Assembly (NCBI GenBank): GCA_002421785.1
Contig: DIRZ01000003.1
Coordinates: forward strand, 150,001 to 182,000
Length of the DNA stretch: 32,000 nucleotides
Direction of reading: 5' to 3'
Origin: Candidatus Saccharimonadota bacterium
GTDB lineage: Bacteria; Patescibacteriota; Saccharimonadia; Saccharimonadales; Saccharimonadaceae
In this document: positions 634 through 24,177 of the stretch, piece by piece
Position numbering within the stretch: the stretch's first letter is position 1
Layout of the letters: each line of letters opens with the position of its first letter
Program-made: the position numbers and the translations under genes
The notes under the pieces: model-generated
The model's input: only the letters and a program-made list of their open reading frames with translations
What the model was told of the DNA's origin: nothing
Database searches by the model: none

Positions 634-2566
<1,933 letters not shown>

Positions 2567-4138: not shown

Positions 4139-6655
4139 ATGCAAGTTACTCGCCTCTACCCACATTTCCAACCCTCAAATTATGATTTATTTTGGGATCT
4201 ATCCGACATCTCGAATCGACGTATTCGAGGCGCTGCAACCATCGCAGGCATAGCAAGCGGCACCGACGAACTGCGGCTTCATGCCAAGGAACTAGATATC
4301 ATATCAGTCACATTAAATGATATACCCGTCGCCGACTTCCGTACTGAGGGCGACGAGCTCGTGATATCAGCACGAGTGAACGGCGCGACGACCGTGCACA
4401 TCGATTTTAGCCTGACAGTCACCGACGCGATGCATGGCATATACCCATGCTACTACACGCTCGATGGCATACGTCACGAACTGTACGCCACTCAATTCGA
4501 AAGCCACCATGCACGCGAAGCATTCCCCTGTATTGATGAACCAGAAGCGAAGGCAACCTATACCGTCAGCCTCAAAACCACTGATGGCTTGCAGGTGCTC
4601 GGCAACATGCCCGTGGCATCAACGCAGCTACTGGGTGCAAGCCGTACGACAACCTTTGTTGCCACACCACGTATGAGCAGCTATCTCGTCGCATTTGTTG
4701 TTGGCGATTTGCAACGCGCAACCACCACGACGCAAAGTGGTGTGGAAGTGAATGTCTATGCGACCAAAGCACATCCCGCCGTTGCCCTCAATTGGGCGCT
4801 CGAGCACGCAGCCCAGACGATTGACTACTTCGATGATTATTTCGGCGTTCCTTACCCGCTCCCTAAAAGCGATCATGTTGCCCTGCCGGACTTTAGTAGC
4901 GGCGCCATGGAAAACTGGGGGCTCATTACCTACCGTGAAATTGCGCTGCTCGCCGATCCTACTACCGTAAGCATCGGGAACAAGCAGTATGTTGCTGAAG
5001 TCGTCGCGCACGAACTCAGCCACCAATGGTTTGGCAACCTGGTAACCATGAAGTGGTGGGACAACCTTTGGCTCAACGAAAGTTTTGCAACAATCATGGA
5101 GTATCTGGCACCTAATAATTTTCACCCAGACTGGGACTTATGGTTTGAGTTTAGTACAAACGAGGGCGTTATGGCACTTCGACGCGACTGCATTGATGGC
5201 GTCCAACCGGTGCAGGTCGCGGTCAACCATCCAGATGAAATTAACTCATTGTTTGACGGCGCCATCGTGTACGCCAAGGGTGGACGATTAATGCGTATGA
5301 TGCAGACCTGGATTGGCGAAACCGCCTTCCGCAAAGGCCTAAAAGACTACTTTAGCTCGCACCAATACAGCAACACCACTGGCGATGATCTATGGGATGC
5401 TCTTTCTGCCGCGAGCGGTAAGGACGTCGGCGCCCTCATGAACACATGGATCTCACAAAGTGGTTACCCGGTCGTTCATGCCGCACTGGCAAACGGACAA
5501 CTTACCCTGCGTCAAGAGCAGTTCTTCGTTGGTCCCCACGAACCGTCCAGCAAGCTGTGGCCAATCCCGCTGCGCGCAAACCAAGCCGACCTACCCGAAC
5601 TGCTCGACACTGCATCTCTCACAGTATCTTTTACTAGCACAGACGCGCTTCATCTCAACGCAGACGACAGTGGGCACTACATTGTTAACTACGATGATGA
5701 GCTACGTTCACGAATCATCGCTGAGCTCAAAGCGGGCAACGTAAGCAATATCCAGCGCGCTCAATTCCTGCACGAACAAATGATGCTGGCGCGCGGTGGG
5801 TATACGAGTAGCGCCCAACTCATTGAACTACTCGATGCATACCGCGATGAAAGCAACGAAAAAGTTTGGGGGATGATTTCACTTGCCATTGCCGATTTAA
5901 AGCGATTTGTCGAAACGAACGATGCCGCCGAAGTGAAACTGCGGCGCTTCGTCGGCTCGCTTGCCGAAAAACAATTTACCCGCCTTGGATGGGAAAAGCT
6001 TGATGGCGAAAGCGAAGATGACACACAGCTTCGTGGCACCATCGTCGGCTGTATGCTCTATAGCGAGCGACCAGAAATCATTGCGCACGCCATCGAATTG
6101 TACTCTCACAATACTCTTGAGCAACTCGACCCAGAACTTCGCAGTCTTATTATGGGCGCCGCCGTTCGCCACGGATCAGACGCCACGGTCGTTGATACGC
6201 TGATTACAACGTATCAGACTACCAGCGCTACCGATATTCAAAGCGATATCACCAGCGCGGTCACCTCAAGCAAAGACCCGGGCGTGTTGCAACGACTGAT
6301 CACCATGTTGACCGATACTAAAATAATTCGCTCACAGGATACCGTCAGGTGGTATGTCAACCTACTCCGTAACCGCGAGGGGCGCAGTGCCGCCTGGCAA
6401 TGGCTACGCGACAACTGGGCATGGATCGAAACGACGTTCGCAAGTGACAAAAGCCACGATTACTTCCCTCGATATTCTGCGAATATTCTTGGTACGCAGC
6501 GTCAACTGCAAGAATATAAAGACTTTTTTACGCCTCTTCGTGACAACCCATCGCTTACCCGAGCCATCGACATGGGCATCCTGGACCTCGAGGGCAGAAT
6601 TGCGATTATCGAACGCGACACGCCTGCGGTCATCGCCGCTCTAAACAAGTTCTAG
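4139..6655 (+). CDS. pepN: aminopeptidase N (M1 family zinc metallopeptidase)
   Basis: Carries the GAMENWG exopeptidase motif and the HELSHQWFGNLVTMKWWDNLWLNESFA zinc site (HEXXH-X18-E), with a long ERAP1-like C-terminal domain. The ORF-track start at 4088 is the alternative. Confidence 0.92.
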   Translation: MQVTRLYPHFQPSNYDLFWDLSDISNRRIRGAATIAGIASGTDELRLHAKELDIISVTLNDIPVADFRTEGDELVISARVNGATTVHIDFSLTVTDAMHGIYPCYYTLDGIRHELYATQFESHHAREAFPCIDEPEAKATYTVSLKTTDGLQVLGNMPVASTQLLGASRTTTFVATPRMSSYLVAFVVGDLQRATTTTQSGVEVNVYATKAHPAVALNWALEHAAQTIDYFDDYFGVPYPLPKSDHVALPDFSSGAMENWGLITYREIALLADPTTVSIGNKQYVAEVVAHELSHQWFGNLVTMKWWDNLWLNESFATIMEYLAPNNFHPDWDLWFEFSTNEGVMALRRDCIDGVQPVQVAVNHPDEINSLFDGAIVYAKGGRLMRMMQTWIGETAFRKGLKDYFSSHQYSNTTGDDLWDALSAASGKDVGALMNTWISQSGYPVVHAALANGQLTLRQEQFFVGPHEPSSKLWPIPLRANQADLPELLDTASLTVSFTSTDALHLNADDSGHYIVNYDDELRSRIIAELKAGNVSNIQRAQFLHEQMMLARGGYTSSAQLIELLDAYRDESNEKVWGMISLAIADLKRFVETNDAAEVKLRRFVGSLAEKQFTRLGWEKLDGESEDDTQLRGTIVGCMLYSERPEIIAHAIELYSHNTLEQLDPELRSLIMGAAVRHGSDATVVDTLITTYQTTSATDIQSDITSAVTSSKDPGVLQRLITMLTDTKIIRSQDTVRWYVNLLRNREGRSAAWQWLRDNWAWIETTFASDKSHDYFPRYSANILGTQRQLQEYKDFFTPLRDNPSLTRAIDMGILDLEGRIAIIERDTPAVIAALNKF

Positions 6656-7620: not shown

Positions 7621-7649
7621 TTGACATTGTGCTTATTTATTGCTATAAT
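7621..7649 (+). promoter_or_regulatory. consensus sigma70-type promoter TTGACA-17-TATAAT (with TGc extension)
   Basis: TTGACA lies at 7621-7626 and TATAAT at 7644-7649, separated by a 17-nt spacer. The SD GGCAGGAG (7680-7686) and ATG 7689 follow. Confidence 0.7.
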
Positions 7650-7688
7650 ATATATATTGGTTCTCCACTCTAGTGAAAGGCAGGAGCC

Positions 7689-7970
7689 ATGTCCGACTCA
7701 CTCTCGTTGACTGAAATGATCGAGGTCGCCAAACTGGCGACCACTACCGCGCTCAGCACCAAGCACACCGGTGACGGACGCGTGATCGTCCACCTCCGGA
7801 CCACCAACGGACGCCAGGTGGGCAGTGCGTCCTCGGTCCTGTCGCTCGCCGGCTGCAAGGAGGTCATCGACGCGTTCGATCCCGATGGCTCTATCCGAGC
7901 GAACGCCCGGGCGGCCCGGGAACGTCGAGGCCTGCGCACCCCGACCGACATCGCACTCTACCGCACGTGA
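7689..7970 (+). CDS. hypothetical 93-aa protein encoded in a GC-rich (about 65%) cassette
   Basis: It has its own consensus promoter, an AGGAG SD 3 nt from the ATG, and a strong terminator directly after the stop. Third codon positions are almost all G/C in this frame. I recognised no family. Confidence 0.65.
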   Translation: MSDSLSLTEMIEVAKLATTTALSTKHTGDGRVIVHLRTTNGRQVGSASSVLSLAGCKEVIDAFDPDGSIRANARAARERRGLRTPTDIALYRT

Positions 7971-7975
7971 GTACT

Positions 7976-8021
7976 GGGGTGCGTTCAGGCCAACAGGTCT
8001 GAACGCACCCCACTTTTATTT
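7976..8021 (+). terminator. rho-independent terminator of the 93-aa gene
   Basis: GGGGTGCGTTCAGGCC-AACA-GGTCTGAACGCACCCC forms a 16-bp stem with one G-U pair, followed by ACTTTTATTT. Confidence 0.85.
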
Positions 8022-8025
8022 ACCT

Positions 8026-8055
8026 AAAAATATCCCCGGATTCGGGGATATTTTA
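8026..8055 (-). terminator. terminator of rplS (hairpin usable in both directions)
   Basis: AAAATATCCCC-GGATTC-GGGGATATTTT forms an 11-bp stem with A/T runs on both sides. It begins 15 nt after the rplS stop. Confidence 0.75.
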
Positions 8056-8069
8056 GTGAGTTCAAGTGA

Positions 8070-8594
8070 TTAGCTGTTTTGTGCGTGACGTGCTTCGACT
8101 TCAGCGGCCTGCGCATCAAGCTTTGCCTGCTCGGCATCTTTTTCGGCTTGGCGTGCAGCTGCTTCAGCGGCTTTCTCTTCTTTGATACGTGCTTCGTCTT
8201 CGGCAACGTGAGCGTCTTTGATCGCATTCACTGCTTCACGGTCAAACTGCACCGCTGTCAAACGTGCGCTCTTACCGCTGCGCTGGCGCAGGTAGCTAAG
8301 GAAGTTACGGCGAACTTTGCTGCGGCGAACAATTTCAACCTTCTCAACAAGGGGGCTATGAAGCAAGAAGCTTTTTTCAACACCAACACCGCTGGTAATT
8401 TTACGCACGGTGATACGGTTTGTGTGCTGACCCTTGTTATCGGTGCGGATGACGACACCTTCAAAAATCTGGATACGCTCTTTAGCACCTTCTTTAATCT
8501 TTTGGTGAACACGAACGGTGTCACCGCTACGTGCGTCAACGACTTGCTTCTTTTTCTGCTCGTCGTTTACTTTTTGAATCAATGCAAAACTCAT
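8070..8594 (-). CDS. rplS: 50S ribosomal protein L19 with a ~60-aa Ala/Glu/Lys/Gln-rich C-terminal extension
   Basis: The L19 core is GDTVRVHQKIKEGAKERIQIFEGVVIR...ITVRKI.SGVGVEKSFLLHSP.VEKVEIVRRSKVRRNFLSYLR. The tail is DAHVAEDEARIKEEKAAEAAARQAEKDAEQAKLDAQAAEVEARHAQNS. Confidence 0.95.
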   Translation of the reverse strand: MSFALIQKVNDEQKKKQVVDARSGDTVRVHQKIKEGAKERIQIFEGVVIRTDNKGQHTNRITVRKITSGVGVEKSFLLHSPLVEKVEIVRRSKVRRNFLSYLRQRSGKSARLTAVQFDREAVNAIKDAHVAEDEARIKEEKAAEAAARQAEKDAEQAKLDAQAAEVEARHAQNS

Positions 8595-8635
8595 CTGTTA
8601 CTCGCTTATCACTTAATATTACAATTCAACTATCA

Positions 8636-8663
8636 ACTATAGCATAGATTGTGGAATTTTCAA
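8636..8663 (-). promoter_or_regulatory. candidate rplS promoter TTGAAA-16-TGcTATAGT
   Basis: The minus strand reads TTGAAAattccacaatctaTGcTATAGT, giving a leader of about 35 nt to ATG 8594. Confidence 0.5.
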
Positions 8664-8727
8664 AGGGTTACCCTGCTTTTCGTCATTTTTGACTCATCAG
8701 CATAGTACATACAACTATGGAAGCAGG

Positions 8728-9364
8728 AACAAAGAGAACCCGTGGTGGCACCAAGCTCGGACAAACCAGTAACGGCGTGCCCAAGTTGACCGACGGCCTC
8801 CTTGTCACACAGCTCCTGAGGACGGTGATGATTGTTGTGATGCATCACGCGCCATACGCACGCCTATCCGAATAGACAAGGGTTATCGCGATGGGTACTG
8901 GCGACAACTCATAACTGCACGTAGCAGTTGCTCACAATCCTAGCGGACTGCGGGCATCTTGTACCGGACACTTGTCGTACGGGGTCTTTGCAGCCTCTTG
9001 CGGCGCTAGGTATGCACGCGGGCAGGGCAACATAACACATGCAGCCCACCATGCCACTTTGTGTCCTTTTGCCGCTCCGGCTTGCAGCCAGCGTTTGCTC
9101 GTCGTCACCTTGCATTGCGCTTGTGGAAGCGAACTCACCCGTAGGGAGTTCGAAGACGATGAAGTGTACACTCCGAGCATCAATTGTCCATCATACCTTT
9201 CGGCATGAGACAATCGGCTGGTTTTTGATGGACGCGCTGTCCTCTTCCTCAACTCAGCCACATGGGGCGTACACACTGGACTGACCGTCCGAGTATGCTG
9301 AGCGAGCACAGCCACCTGAATAGAATCCGGTAGGCATGCTCGCTCAGCAGGGGTTCTCTTTGTT
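8728..9364. ncRNA. candidate large structured non-coding RNA or element of unknown class (strand unresolved, slight lean to minus)
   Basis: There is no credible ORF. A perfect 14-bp long-range pair (8728-8741 with 9351-9364) closes the domain. A 13-bp hairpin forms at 9296-9308/9337-9349, with 7-bp helices at 8774-8780/8858-8864 and 8939-8945/9004-9010. Further hairpins lie at 8913-8929, 9130-9152, 9183-9214, 9230-9242 and 9278-9290. I found no match to RNase P, tmRNA, SRP or group II signatures. Confidence 0.55.
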
Positions 9365-9415
9365 AAATTGCAATTAAATACAGGGGTCACTGCCCCTGCC
9401 TTAATCGCCGAAGAT

Positions 9416-9444
9416 AGTATACGATATTGTGTCATTTTGGTCAA
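9416..9444 (-). promoter_or_regulatory. near-consensus promoter TTGACC-17-TATACT pointing into the ORF-free element
   Basis: On the minus strand, TTGACC is the reverse complement of 9439-9444 and TATACT of 9416-9421, with a 17-nt spacer. The next minus-strand CDS (rplS) is about 800 nt away and has its own promoter. Confidence 0.5.
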
Positions 9445-9473
9445 TAATTAATCGTCAACTCGCCCGCGTCGTT

Positions 9474-9479
9474 TATACT
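9474..9479 (+). promoter_or_regulatory. -10 TATACT, 6 nt upstream of malic enzyme ATG 9486 (leaderless-type)
   Basis: The sequence reads cgtcgttTATACTaggcatATG. Confidence 0.45.
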
Positions 9480-9485
9480 AGGCAT

Positions 9486-10619
9486 ATGGATTACAACGAA
9501 CTTGCCCTTACCCTCCACAAACAATACAAAGGAAAAATCACAACCACCCTTCGCGACACTTCGGACCTTGATCGTACAAAGCTAAGCGCCTATTACAGCC
9601 CTGGCGTAGGTGCTGTCAGCCAAGCGATTGCTACCGACCCCTCACAACTCCCTACCTACACATGGACAAACAACCTCGTTGCCGTTATTAGTGACGGCTC
9701 CGCAATCCTTGGCCTAGGCGACCTCGGGCCACGCGCCGCCATGCCAGTCATGGAGGGTAAAGCACTCTTGTTCAAGCACTTTGCAAACATCGACAGCGTT
9801 CCCATTGTGCTCGACGTGCATACGCCCGATGAAATCGTTGCCACCGTCAAAGCCATGGCGCCGAGCTTCGGGGCGATTAATCTTGAAGACATCGCCGCAC
9901 CGAAGTGCTTCGAAATCGAAGAGCGACTTAAGACGGAGTGCGACATTCCTGTTTTCCATGATGACCAACATGGCACAGCGGTGGTCACGCTCGCAGGCCT
10001 CATAAATGCCACAAAAGTTGTTGGTAAACAGCTCAGCAGCTGCAAAGTCGTACTCATTGGTGCTGGCGCTGCTGGCACTGCAATCGCCAAGCTCCTTCGC
10101 CAATACGGAATCGGCACACTGTATGCAGTTGATAGCCGCGGTATAATCAGCAACGACCGAACCGATTTGAATGCAGAAAAAACCGCGCTGATGGACTATC
10201 TTGATACGAACGTTTCGGGAACACTCGATGACGCCATCACCGGTGCGGACATCTTCATCGGCGTTAGCAAGCCTGGACTCTTAACACCAGAAATGATTGC
10301 AAAAATGAATGCCGACCCCATCGTCTTTGCCCTAGCTAACCCAACGCCCGAAATCATGCCCGACCTCGCCAAACAAGCTGGCGTCGCTGTAATGGCAACG
10401 GGACGGAGCGATTTCCCAAATCAAGTAAACAACGCAATTGCCTTTCCTGGCATATTCCGCGGCGCGCTTGATAATGGCATTAAGAAGATTACCGATGAGC
10501 ATAAGCTAGCAACTGCCATCGCTATCGCTGGACTTGTTGCCGAACCAACAGCAGACGAAGTTATCCCTGCGGTCTTCGATGAACGGCTTGTGCCGACCAT
10601 CGCGGCAGTGATCGTGTAG
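9486..10619 (+). CDS. NAD(P)-dependent malic enzyme (short, ~377 aa type)
   Basis: Carries VISDGSAILGLGDLGPRAAMPVMEGKALLFK, GAINLEDI, the Rossmann motif VLIGAGAAGTAIAKLL, and FALANPTPEI. I chose ATG 9486. The track ORF starts at GTG 9429. Confidence 0.9.
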   Translation: MDYNELALTLHKQYKGKITTTLRDTSDLDRTKLSAYYSPGVGAVSQAIATDPSQLPTYTWTNNLVAVISDGSAILGLGDLGPRAAMPVMEGKALLFKHFANIDSVPIVLDVHTPDEIVATVKAMAPSFGAINLEDIAAPKCFEIEERLKTECDIPVFHDDQHGTAVVTLAGLINATKVVGKQLSSCKVVLIGAGAAGTAIAKLLRQYGIGTLYAVDSRGIISNDRTDLNAEKTALMDYLDTNVSGTLDDAITGADIFIGVSKPGLLTPEMIAKMNADPIVFALANPTPEIMPDLAKQAGVAVMATGRSDFPNQVNNAIAFPGIFRGALDNGIKKITDEHKLATAIAIAGLVAEPTADEVIPAVFDERLVPTIAAVIV

Positions 10620-23785: not shown

Positions 23786-24075
23786 TACAAGACCTGCGGA
23801 ACTTTCACGGCGTTTTCGGCAGCATCAGGTGCGAGACCCAACAGTTTCTCGCGCGTTACATCAGTTTGTTGAACTACATCATCACGCCATACGTTTTCCA
23901 AACCGGTCACTTGGTACGTTGGCTCTATGCCACTCGTATCAAGTACTCCCAGCTGATCAATATAGTTCAAAATATTGCCTAAATCCGTTTGAAGATTAGT
24001 GACTTCATCATCAGATAGCTGCAAATTACTTAATTGTGCGAGGTGTCGCACATCGTCGGTGGTTATTGTGCTCAT
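23785..24075 (-). CDS. gatC: Asp/Glu-tRNA(Asn/Gln) amidotransferase subunit C
   Basis: 96 aa, reading DDVRHLAQLSNLQLSDDEV... Its stop overlaps the gatA start (TAATG). Confidence 0.9.
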   Translation of the reverse strand: MSTITTDDVRHLAQLSNLQLSDDEVTNLQTDLGNILNYIDQLGVLDTSGIEPTYQVTGLENVWRDDVVQQTDVTREKLLGLAPDAAENAVKVPQVL

Positions 24076-24083
24076 TAGGATTA

Positions 24084-24089
24084 ATTATA
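24084..24089 (-). promoter_or_regulatory. -10 TATAAT, 8 nt upstream of gatC ATG (leaderless-type operon promoter)
   Basis: The minus strand reads ggacTATAATtaatcctaATG. Confidence 0.45.
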
Positions 24090-24163
24090 GTCCAAATTTT
24101 ACCTGAACGCTAGGGGCGCGAATAAATACCGCCGATAAGCTTTGTAATATACCGCTTATGCCT

Positions 24164-24169
24164 CATAAT
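24164..24169 (+). promoter_or_regulatory. -10-like CATAAT, 8 nt upstream of ATG 24178
   Basis: The sequence reads cctCATAATggaagcagATG. A second TAATAT lies at 24145-24150. Confidence 0.3.
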
Positions 24170-24177
24170 GGAAGCAG

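Follow-up and report, generated by a model that had tools for sequence, protein, structure and literature searches.

We analysed 32,000 nucleotides (nt) of genomic DNA from a Candidatus Saccharimonadota bacterium (GenBank assembly GCA_002421785.1, contig DIRZ01000003.1, positions 150,001 to 182,000; hereafter the window), in which the gene for ribosomal protein L19 (rplS) and a malic-enzyme gene, oriented away from each other, are separated by 892 nt (8595-9486). This gap is the longest stretch of the window with no credible gene. Only two other gaps of at least 200 nt are found between long open reading frames (ORFs), one holding an ORF of 93 amino acids (aa; 7628-8078) and the other gatC (23786-24177), so that an earlier annotation made without database searches (the sequence-only reading) was right to call the gap the only long non-coding stretch of the window. 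It contains a minus-strand unit that begins at a putative sigma-70-type promoter and ends at a putative type III hammerhead ribozyme, with a large, structured interior between them (Table 1). The genes around the unit encode L19, malic enzyme, RNase HII and aminopeptidase N. Among Saccharibacteria (TM7) the window is closest to Candidatus Saccharimonas aalborgensis (L19 86% identical), and the 80 best genomic matches of the L19 protein come nearly all from Saccharibacteria or Patescibacteria assemblies; the exact L19 protein was also found on many metagenome contigs.

Table 1. Features of the unit and its surroundings in the window, and contents of corresponding loci in related genomes (bp, base pairs; A4, alignment of five lineages described in the text)
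Feature	Sequence	Position	Strand	Basis or content
rplS (L19)	window	8594-8070	minus	
rplS promoter	window	8663-8636	minus	promoter scan; TTGAAA, 16 nt, TG-TATAGT
Type III hammerhead	window	8727-8672	minus	core and three stems (6, 4, 7 bp); Rfam RF00008
P1, 3' strand	window	8741-8728	minus	GGGUUCUCUUUGUU; exact complement of P1 5' strand
Conserved 3' domain	window	8823-8742	minus	GUCCUCAGGAGC, GGUCAAC, GGGCACGCCG, GGUGCCACCA; invariant across five lineages
PE hairpin	window	8908-8876	minus	GUUGUCGC...GCGAUAAC and conserved AACCCU; 8 pairs, 96% paired, 6 invariant
Variable middle region	window	9123-8909	minus	identity and fold z-scores
P6 hairpin	window	9152-9124	minus	CGAACUC/GAGUUCG, followed directly by invariant GCUUCCA
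P5	window	9214-9183	minus	5 bp, 2-nt bulge (UG) on 3' strand, 7 bp, GAAA loop
P4 domain	window	9259-9216	minus	GGCUG...CAGCC; helices 95-100% paired in A4
P3	window	9290-9278	minus	small GGAC-N5-GUCC hairpin; 4/4 pairs in all lineages
P2	window	9349-9296	minus	long hairpin, conserved 13-bp base, variable tip; inverted repeat and alignments
P1, 5' strand	window	9364-9351	minus	AACAAAGAGAACCC; exact 14-bp complement of 8741-8728
P0, 5'-terminal hairpin	window	9408-9370	minus	AU-rich outer stem around GCAGGGG/CCCCUGU; minimum-free-energy folds
Sigma-70-type promoter	window	9444-9416	minus	TTGACC, 17 nt, TATACT; scan, 10/12 matches
Malic-enzyme gene	window	ATG at 9487	plus	
Malic/rplS slot	L143			empty (120-nt gap)
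Malic/rplS slot	L092			128-aa ORF
Malic/rplS slot	L093-95 (S. aalborgensis; CP005957, CP065015)	1040-1600		67-aa ORF
Malic/rplS slot	L099			51-aa ORF
Malic/rplS slot	L142			222-aa ORF
Malic/rplS slot	L101			about 53-aa ORF and same hammerhead subtype
RAGATH-10, ORF and hammerhead unit	L074	about 5065-5700	minus	
RAGATH-10, ORF and hammerhead unit	L085	about 5064-5650	minus	
RAGATH-10, ORF and hammerhead unit	L083	about 5952-6510	minus	

The element and its relatives were grouped in five lineages: W (the window with L001 and L005), V, U, U' and T. Ten contigs with an L19 protein identical to that of the window were fetched; two (L001 and L005) match the window exactly across the element, and the other eight make up the V lineage, where the element is about 84% identical despite the identical L19. 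More distant full-length homologues lie upstream of rplS in L012 = L091 (U), L096-98 and L147 (U') and L145/146 (T). All five lineages carry the promoter, P0, P1 and the hammerhead in register, and the full-length homologues are confined to this same slot between the malic-enzyme gene and rplS.

The strand and the 3' end of the structured RNA are fixed by the hammerhead, which reads CCUGCUU-C / CAUAGU-UGUAUGU-ACUAUG CUGAUGA GUCA-AAAA-UGAC GAAA AGCAGG (the slash marks the predicted cut, 3' of C8720). Its core is complete, with CUGAUGA, GAAA and an A15.1-U16.1 pair followed by a non-G cleavage nucleotide; stems I and II are closed by loops and stem III (8672-8678/8721-8727) is open. With type III hammerheads it shares both core segments, the UC cleavage dinucleotide, the open stem III, the G-C pair at the base of stem II and three covarying stems, but it is compact (stem II GUCN-AAAA-NGAC, short loop I), scores below the Rfam gathering cut-off and directly adjoins the helix that closes a large RNA, with no spacer between them. 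The permissive Rfam scan matched Hammerhead_3 (RF00008) at minus 8720-8679 (24.4 bits, E-value 0.015); the local alignments do not include stem III, and the ribozyme has a minimal stem II with a minimal loop. A motif scan found one such hammerhead in the window and none in shuffled sequences (0/300 dinucleotide shuffles). All five lineages have the ribozyme, each of its three stems shows changes on both sides, and the core is the same everywhere apart from a variant in L002 that is considered below. Since the score stays below the gathering level everywhere, the assignment relies on core, helices and covariation and not on Rfam, and on these grounds we add the ribozyme to a known family as a new member. 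Neither it nor the promoter had been recognised in the sequence-only reading, which had described a stem abutting P1; this stem is present and kept in relatives, but it is stem III of the hammerhead and starts at 8672 rather than 8674 (8674-8680 had been given). Hammerheads with the same minimal stem II (GUCN-AAAA-NGAC) also occur on 40 IMG/VR viral contigs (L102-L141), on some of them in 2-3 copies, and there the match, obtained by scanning for the stem II pattern, is limited to the ribozyme part.

Conservation of the structure was evaluated on two alignments. In A3 (10 sequences, RNAalifold consensus) 94% of the cells in 232 consensus pairs can pair, and 44 pairs are changed on both sides, compared with 15.6 +/- 3.1 in shuffled controls (0/500 reach the observed number) and 4-12 in slid ones. 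In A4 (five lineages, stricter consensus) 96.1% of the cells in 148 pairs are paired, 37 pairs are changed on both sides (4-10 when slid) and the covariation score is 0.300 (0.045-0.069 when slid). These substitution patterns show that an RNA structure has been under selection in the five lineages. They bear out the candidate large structured RNA of unknown class put forward by the sequence-only reading, which had looked to relatives for compensatory changes, as do the non-coding character of the region and the lack of any Rfam match to its body (see below).

The same reading had found the evidence on strand mixed. The strand of the structured RNA is minus, and not ambiguous: besides the hammerhead and the promoter, A4 contains 215 G.U cells and 17 A.C cells, a count that is biased toward the strand used for structure prediction and that agrees with ribozyme and promoter, and the consensus is 96.1% paired as minus-strand RNA and 82.7% as plus-strand RNA. 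By z-score against shuffles both strands fold equally well (minus -8.4, plus -10.5), and inverted repeats are symmetric in DNA; an element acting at the DNA level, such as a palindrome cluster for recombination or replication, would give the same picture. We consider such an element extremely improbable, however, given that the hammerhead core is strand-specific and meaningless in DNA, that G.U outnumbers A.C and many pairs alternate between G-C and G-U, and that the promoter is conserved on the same strand. By part, the z-scores are -5 to -8 in the 5' third and -2.4 to -4.6 in P5-P6.

Transcription would start near 9409, downstream of a promoter whose position is kept in the U and T lineages (TTGACT, 17 nt, TATGAT in L012 and L145), and the predicted product, from about 9409 to 8720, is about 690 nt long. 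Its first hairpin, P0, resembles a terminator (core 9380-9399, terminator-like call); the U and T lineages build its outer stem from another sequence, with U6 behind it. P1 is the exact 14-bp pairing noticed in the sequence-only reading; it closes a 637-nt domain, is kept in relatives, and its 3' strand joins hammerhead stem III directly, with a spacer of 0. The chance of about 0.003 which that reading had calculated for perfect 13-mer complements is arithmetically correct. Pair 54/743 of P1 has changed from A-U to G-C in 5/10 sequences of A4, and in U and T one base is deleted on both strands (GCAAAGAGACCC/GGGUCUCUUUGC).

A hammerhead beside a terminal closing helix could also mean that P1 aligns the RNA ends for ligation into a circle, or that the unit moves via an RNA intermediate. 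In favour of this, the unit behaves as an insertion with respect to an empty site and its cargo is replaced between close relatives. We regard a circular or mobile RNA as very unlikely nevertheless. Neither Rfam at E<=10 nor the motif scan revealed a second self-cleaver on either strand, and a single ribozyme leaves the RNA without a 5'-OH end. We saw no direct repeats at the flanks of the element, which occurs once in the window (the sequence-only reading had thought many dispersed copies a sign of mobility), has no reverse transcriptase next to it and folds into a branched rather than a rod-like shape. In the metagenome collection the core pattern CCTCAGGAGC-N19-24-GGTCAAC-NN-GGGC retrieved a single contig, identical to L012, and in the viral contigs it matched nothing; BLAST of the element against phage and plasmid collections gave no match. 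Retrozymes and viroid-like RNAs likewise have a type III hammerhead beside an end pairing and an RNA of 0.6-0.7 kb, but the window differs in having one ribozyme, no repeats, a single chromosomal DNA site and a branched fold, and this assignment was rejected because the hammerhead is single and of minus polarity only. The RNA of a retron was rejected as well: terminal repeats (P1) are present, but Pfam searches of the neighbours showed no adjacent reverse transcriptase.

Following P1 in the RNA, P2 has 10 invariant pairs and then pairs that change from C-G to G-C or A-U and from A-U to C-G; its base is the 13-bp hairpin exactly as the sequence-only reading had drawn it (9296-9308/9337-9349), kept in relatives, and in its tip helix 5 pairs are changed on both sides. 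In P3, G-C alternates with G-U (A4). Inside the P4 domain lie the invariant GAGUUGAG.A.GAGGA and a lineage-dependent inner hairpin, and P5 is flanked by the invariant UGUCUCA and UGAUGGACA. P5 is 98% paired in A4 with 3 pairs changed on both sides (U-A to G-U or A-U, G-U to C-G, A-U to U-G or C-G), and its loop is non-GNRA in the U and T lineages. The P6 helix has by eye been swapped for other complements, GAUUGCC/GGCAAUU in U and AAUCGC/GCGAUU in T. Local hairpins covary also in the middle region, where one helix (A3) has 6 pairs changed on both sides. Closer to the 3' end, PE is 0.71 identical to the U and T lineages, and the 3' domain, whose helices are 97-100% paired in A4, is 0.91 identical to V; with U and T its identity is 0.71-0.72, where a neutral proxy gives 0.49-0.56.

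Across the five lineages the invariant blocks are GGCUGAGUUGAG.A.GAGGA, UGUCUCA, UGAUGGACA, GCUUCCA, GUUGUCGC, GUCCUCAGGAGC, GGUCAA, CGCCG and GGUGCC.CCA; segments outside them are in part unalignable. Identity of core blocks between W and U or T is 0.58-0.80, compared with 0.49-0.56 at third codon positions of rplS. At the other extreme, the identity between W and V falls to 0.48-0.50 at about 8913-9026, with flanks at 0.8-1.0 and rplS third positions at 0.88, which makes this the most divergent block in a 6.5-kb W/V comparison in which the L19 proteins are identical. Either allele exchange or very fast evolution would account for it; a diversity-generating retroelement was rejected, as the changes are by eye not adenine-specific. 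The invariant GAGGA of P4 (9230-9240) and an invariant UCCUC of the 3' domain (8817-8822) are complementary on the minus strand, and could form a tertiary contact or mimic the pairing between ribosome-binding site and 16S rRNA. A conserved mini-ORF behind the GAGGA block was rejected, a start codon being absent in every lineage, and a tRNA-like reading of GGUGCCACCA was considered and rejected.

The comparison among lineages also separates the helices of the sequence-only reading. Its hairpins at 9118-9131 and 9130-9152 and the bulged one at 9183-9214 are kept in the four other lineages. The first of its twin GGAC hairpins (9230-9242) is lineage-specific and the second (9278-9290, our P3) is kept, and the hairpin at 9077-9091 exists in the window but is lineage-specific. 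Four further proposals fail in relatives: the helix 8774-8780/8858-8864 retains 3-4/7 pairs and the helix 8939-8945/9004-9010 retains 0-3/7, covariation preferring a local hairpin there; the pseudoknot 8962-8968/9326-9332 retains 4/7; and the helix 8956-8964/8977-8985, present in the window, is not kept.

Coding capacity was evaluated by comparing W and V. Indels of 1, 2, 1, 1, 5, 1 and 1 nt break every frame, and the substitutions fall 37/20/29 on the three codon positions, with the third-position excess absent. The 170-aa ORF exists only in W, is broken in V and has its start upstream of the predicted transcription start, and a Pfam search of all frames of the element returned nothing above cut-off. 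These comparisons show the region to be non-coding, and a protein gene or recent pseudogene was rejected on account of the frame-breaking indels, the lack of a shared ORF and the lack of a Pfam match above cut-off.

The body of the RNA is unclassified. Rfam 15 (4227 families) was run in gathering mode on the 32-kb window and at E<=10 on 8500-9550; there was no match at gathering score in the window, and none to the RNA body at E<=10 in the window or at E<=1 in V, U, U' and T (E<=0.1 for L012). On both strands the sub-threshold hammerhead was the only signal, the other permissive matches (miRNA, snoRNA, lncRNA) being judged noise. A tRNA and tmRNA scan with ARAGORN found nothing, in line with the sequence-only reading, which had seen no signature of RNase P RNA, tmRNA, signal recognition particle (SRP) RNA or group II introns. 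RNase P RNA, tmRNA, SRP RNA and 6S RNA were rejected since no model matches and the slot of sister genomes is empty or ORF-bearing, presence being judged at the slot. A group II intron was rejected too, with no model match at E<=10. P5 recalls domain V of group II introns, since a bulge of 2 nt in its 3' strand separates the lower helix from the upper one and the window version is capped by a GAAA loop, but it has 5+7 bp where domain V has proportions of about 9+5, the AGC triad is missing, and the loop is not conserved, being non-GNRA in U and T.

Models of the ornate bacterial RNAs ROOL, GOLLD, OLE, raiA and HEARO gave no match at E<=10. The window RNA shares with these a length of several hundred nt, many conserved helices, invariant junctions and no known function, and with ROOL and GOLLD a patchy distribution; it differs from them in that its range as known here is a single Saccharimonas clade. 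We know of no ROOL, GOLLD, OLE, raiA or HEARO RNA whose 3' end is described as carrying a cis hammerhead, nor of a structured RNA class above 500 nt reported from Saccharibacteria. There is a substantial chance that the RNA represents a new class.

The contents of the slot vary among sister genomes, being empty in one and occupied by different small ORFs in others (Table 1). Pfam found nothing above cut-off in the five ORFs scanned, namely the slot ORFs of L092, L093, L099 and L142 (L101 was left out) and the ORF of L074 from the oral units described below. The ORFs of L093 and L142 are visibly GC-rich, with a codon usage unlike that of the host genome, and slot ORFs may have been acquired horizontally, an origin suggested by the fact that Saccharibacteria have actinobacterial hosts. 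Several slot ORFs are framed by a 12-13-bp helix that joins the ribosome-binding site to the 3' untranslated region; the purine-rich stretch at the ribosome-binding site pairs there as GACAAGGAGAGAG/CUCUCUCCUUGUC in L093 and as GACAAGAAGGGG/CCCCUUCUUGUC in L092. A covariance model of the 5' part of the window element (R1) finds the P1 strand and P2 before the 67-aa ORF of S. aalborgensis (24.1 bits, rough E-value 2.4e-4), and it finds L011 at 1.6e-3. The S. aalborgensis leader escaped an nhmmer leader profile; the covariance model alone found it, modestly. A common frame seems to be shared by units with RNA cargo and units with ORF cargo.

This variability bears on two alternatives. In the first, the window element is a decayed cassette that formerly encoded a small protein, in which only the leader (P0-P3) and the 3' frame (P1 and hammerhead) function and the interior is degenerating. 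We consider this unlikely, although it is the weightiest of the rivals, ahead of an rplS cis element, a circular or mobile RNA and a DNA element, in this order. It would explain the intact small ORFs of sister slots, the P1 5' strand and P2 found before the S. aalborgensis ORF, and a middle region that folds like shuffles and is the most divergent stretch of the locus. However, P4, P5, GCUUCCA, PE and the 80-nt 3' domain are near-invariant and better conserved than rplS third positions; the pairing of P5 is kept by compensatory changes, and that of P6 likewise by eye; none of the five lineages keeps an ORF, yet their aligned units are of similar length (721-753 nt). No frame contains a Pfam trace, and 450 nt of filler could be expected to disappear from a streamlined genome of about 1 Mb. 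The sequence-only reading had suggested that an intact protein gene in relatives would point to decay; small ORFs do occupy the slot of some sisters, but their sequences are unrelated. The slot ORFs are unrelated cargo and not an intact form of the window RNA, and for this reason decay stays a minority explanation.

According to the second alternative, the unit is a cis-acting leader or insulator of rplS, whose hammerhead defines where the rplS mRNA begins, or disconnects rplS from transcription arriving from upstream, and whose body controls L19 expression. The RNA lies on the same strand as rplS and directly upstream of it wherever it occurs, with just a weak terminator-like hairpin between hammerhead and gene. 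Such a role is nonetheless quite improbable: rplS keeps a promoter of its own, a body of about 640 nt far exceeds the known ribosomal-protein leaders (we know of none near this size), and the same rplS 5' region is found in genomes whose slot is empty or ORF-bearing, so the RNA is dispensable for rplS.

Considering all this, the element is probably an accessory minus-strand transcription unit that produces a large structured non-coding RNA whose 3' end is made by a cis hammerhead. The sigma-70 promoter would start the RNA near 9409, its 5' end would open as the stable hairpin P0, and P1 would clamp the 5' and 3' parts around the 637-nt multi-helix body. After P1 the hammerhead would cut the nascent transcript 3' of C8720. 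By the established chemistry of hammerheads, the released RNA would end in a 2',3'-cyclic phosphate and the downstream fragment would begin with a 5'-OH, so cleavage would release an RNA of about 690 nt with a cyclic phosphate on an 8-nt tail beside P1 and separate it from transcription into rplS, which has its own promoter. The mature RNA would consist of a conserved core (P1-P6, PE and the 3' domain) and a fast-changing middle. P0, P1 and the cyclic-phosphate end may stabilise it, and most likely it would act in trans as a stable structured RNA. It is not a housekeeping RNA, since the slot varies between sister genomes.

Several observations weigh against this interpretation. The Rfam score of the hammerhead is 22.8-32.1 bits in the five lineages, short of the gathering score of 48.5, and a related copy in L089 (38.2 bits) is also below it. 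In L002 (2867-2924) the core carries a natural variant, CCGAUGA for CUGAUGA (U4 to C), that should weaken cleavage; an inactive allele and an assembly error are both conceivable. P0 is terminator-like and lies just past the start, so that most transcripts could stop early. The middle region (214 nt in the window) folds as shuffles do (z +0.3; -1.4 to -2.4 in other lineages), and the middle third is barely alignable between lineages. The alignments are plain MAFFT, built from sequence only and unreliable in variable regions; P6 pairs score poorly on them in U and T (2/7), which we attribute to misalignment. Four of the 10 rows of A4 come from one lineage and, as there are only five lineages in one genus-level clade, each covarying event is counted few times.

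Similar units with a coding interior were found in oral TM7 bacteria. In L074 and L085 the Rfam motif RAGATH-10 (RF03147) matches with 85-89 bits and covers the ribosome-binding site of a small ORF of variable sequence. At their 3' end the oral units have a type III hammerhead, and a long-range helix, UUGACAAG.../...CUUGUCA, brings their two ends together. This arrangement suggests that RAGATH-10 is a 5' leader of hammerhead-terminated mRNAs. The same hammerhead subtype ends ORF units in L101 and, downstream of RAGATH-10, in the oral loci. As in the window, these are independent units with a structured 5' leader, a helix between 5' and 3' parts and this hammerhead subtype at the 3' end, but they carry a variable ORF of about 130 aa where the window has a conserved non-coding interior and no ORF. 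RAGATH-10 itself, an 82-nt three-hairpin motif closed by CCUCAUCU/GGAUGAGG, was rejected for the window, with no match at E<=10. A search of the literature on RAGATH-10 and hammerheads in Saccharibacteria found nothing relevant, and the closest precedents for a helix-framed, hammerhead-ended RNA or ORF are the separate Rfam entries RAGATH-10 and Hammerhead_3, not a described system.

Between rnhB and rplS the plus strand of the window carries another stand-alone cassette (7622-8056). It has a perfect promoter (TTGACA, 17 nt, TATAAT at 7622-7650), a 93-aa ORF (7689-7970) with a GC content of 64-68% against about 50% for the genome and no Pfam match, and a strong terminator (7972-8020), after which comes a second hairpin (about 8028-8056), the probable terminator of rplS. 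This slot also varies among related strains, which have ORFs of 93, 94, 101, 138, 174 or 185 aa, or none.

A bolder interpretation of the window unit, which we put forward tentatively and with less confidence than the transcription unit itself, is that it is a swappable RNA gene cassette of Saccharibacteria and belongs to a new large-RNA class, combining a hammerhead-made 3' end, a terminal helix that keeps both ends together, and a conserved core with, in addition, a block that varies between near-identical strains more than the rest of the locus. If this is true, the block pattern of the cassette would suit a conflict or recognition role, for example towards phages or the actinobacterial host, and bacterial hammerheads would gain a defined job, making the 3' ends of independent transcription units.

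Few bacterial RNA classes above 500 nt with a conserved architecture are known, and each opened new biology; the reduced genomes of Saccharibacteria, moreover, leave little space for non-essential sequence. The biological role of bacterial hammerheads is largely unknown. Here the ribozyme stands at the 3' ends of stand-alone units, with RNA or ORF cargo, beside a helix that joins the ends, and we suggest that it may be an alternative to intrinsic termination which would leave a protected cyclic-phosphate end. The slot beside rplS, with its differing contents in closely related strains, suggests a hot spot where these episymbiotic bacteria keep accessory content.

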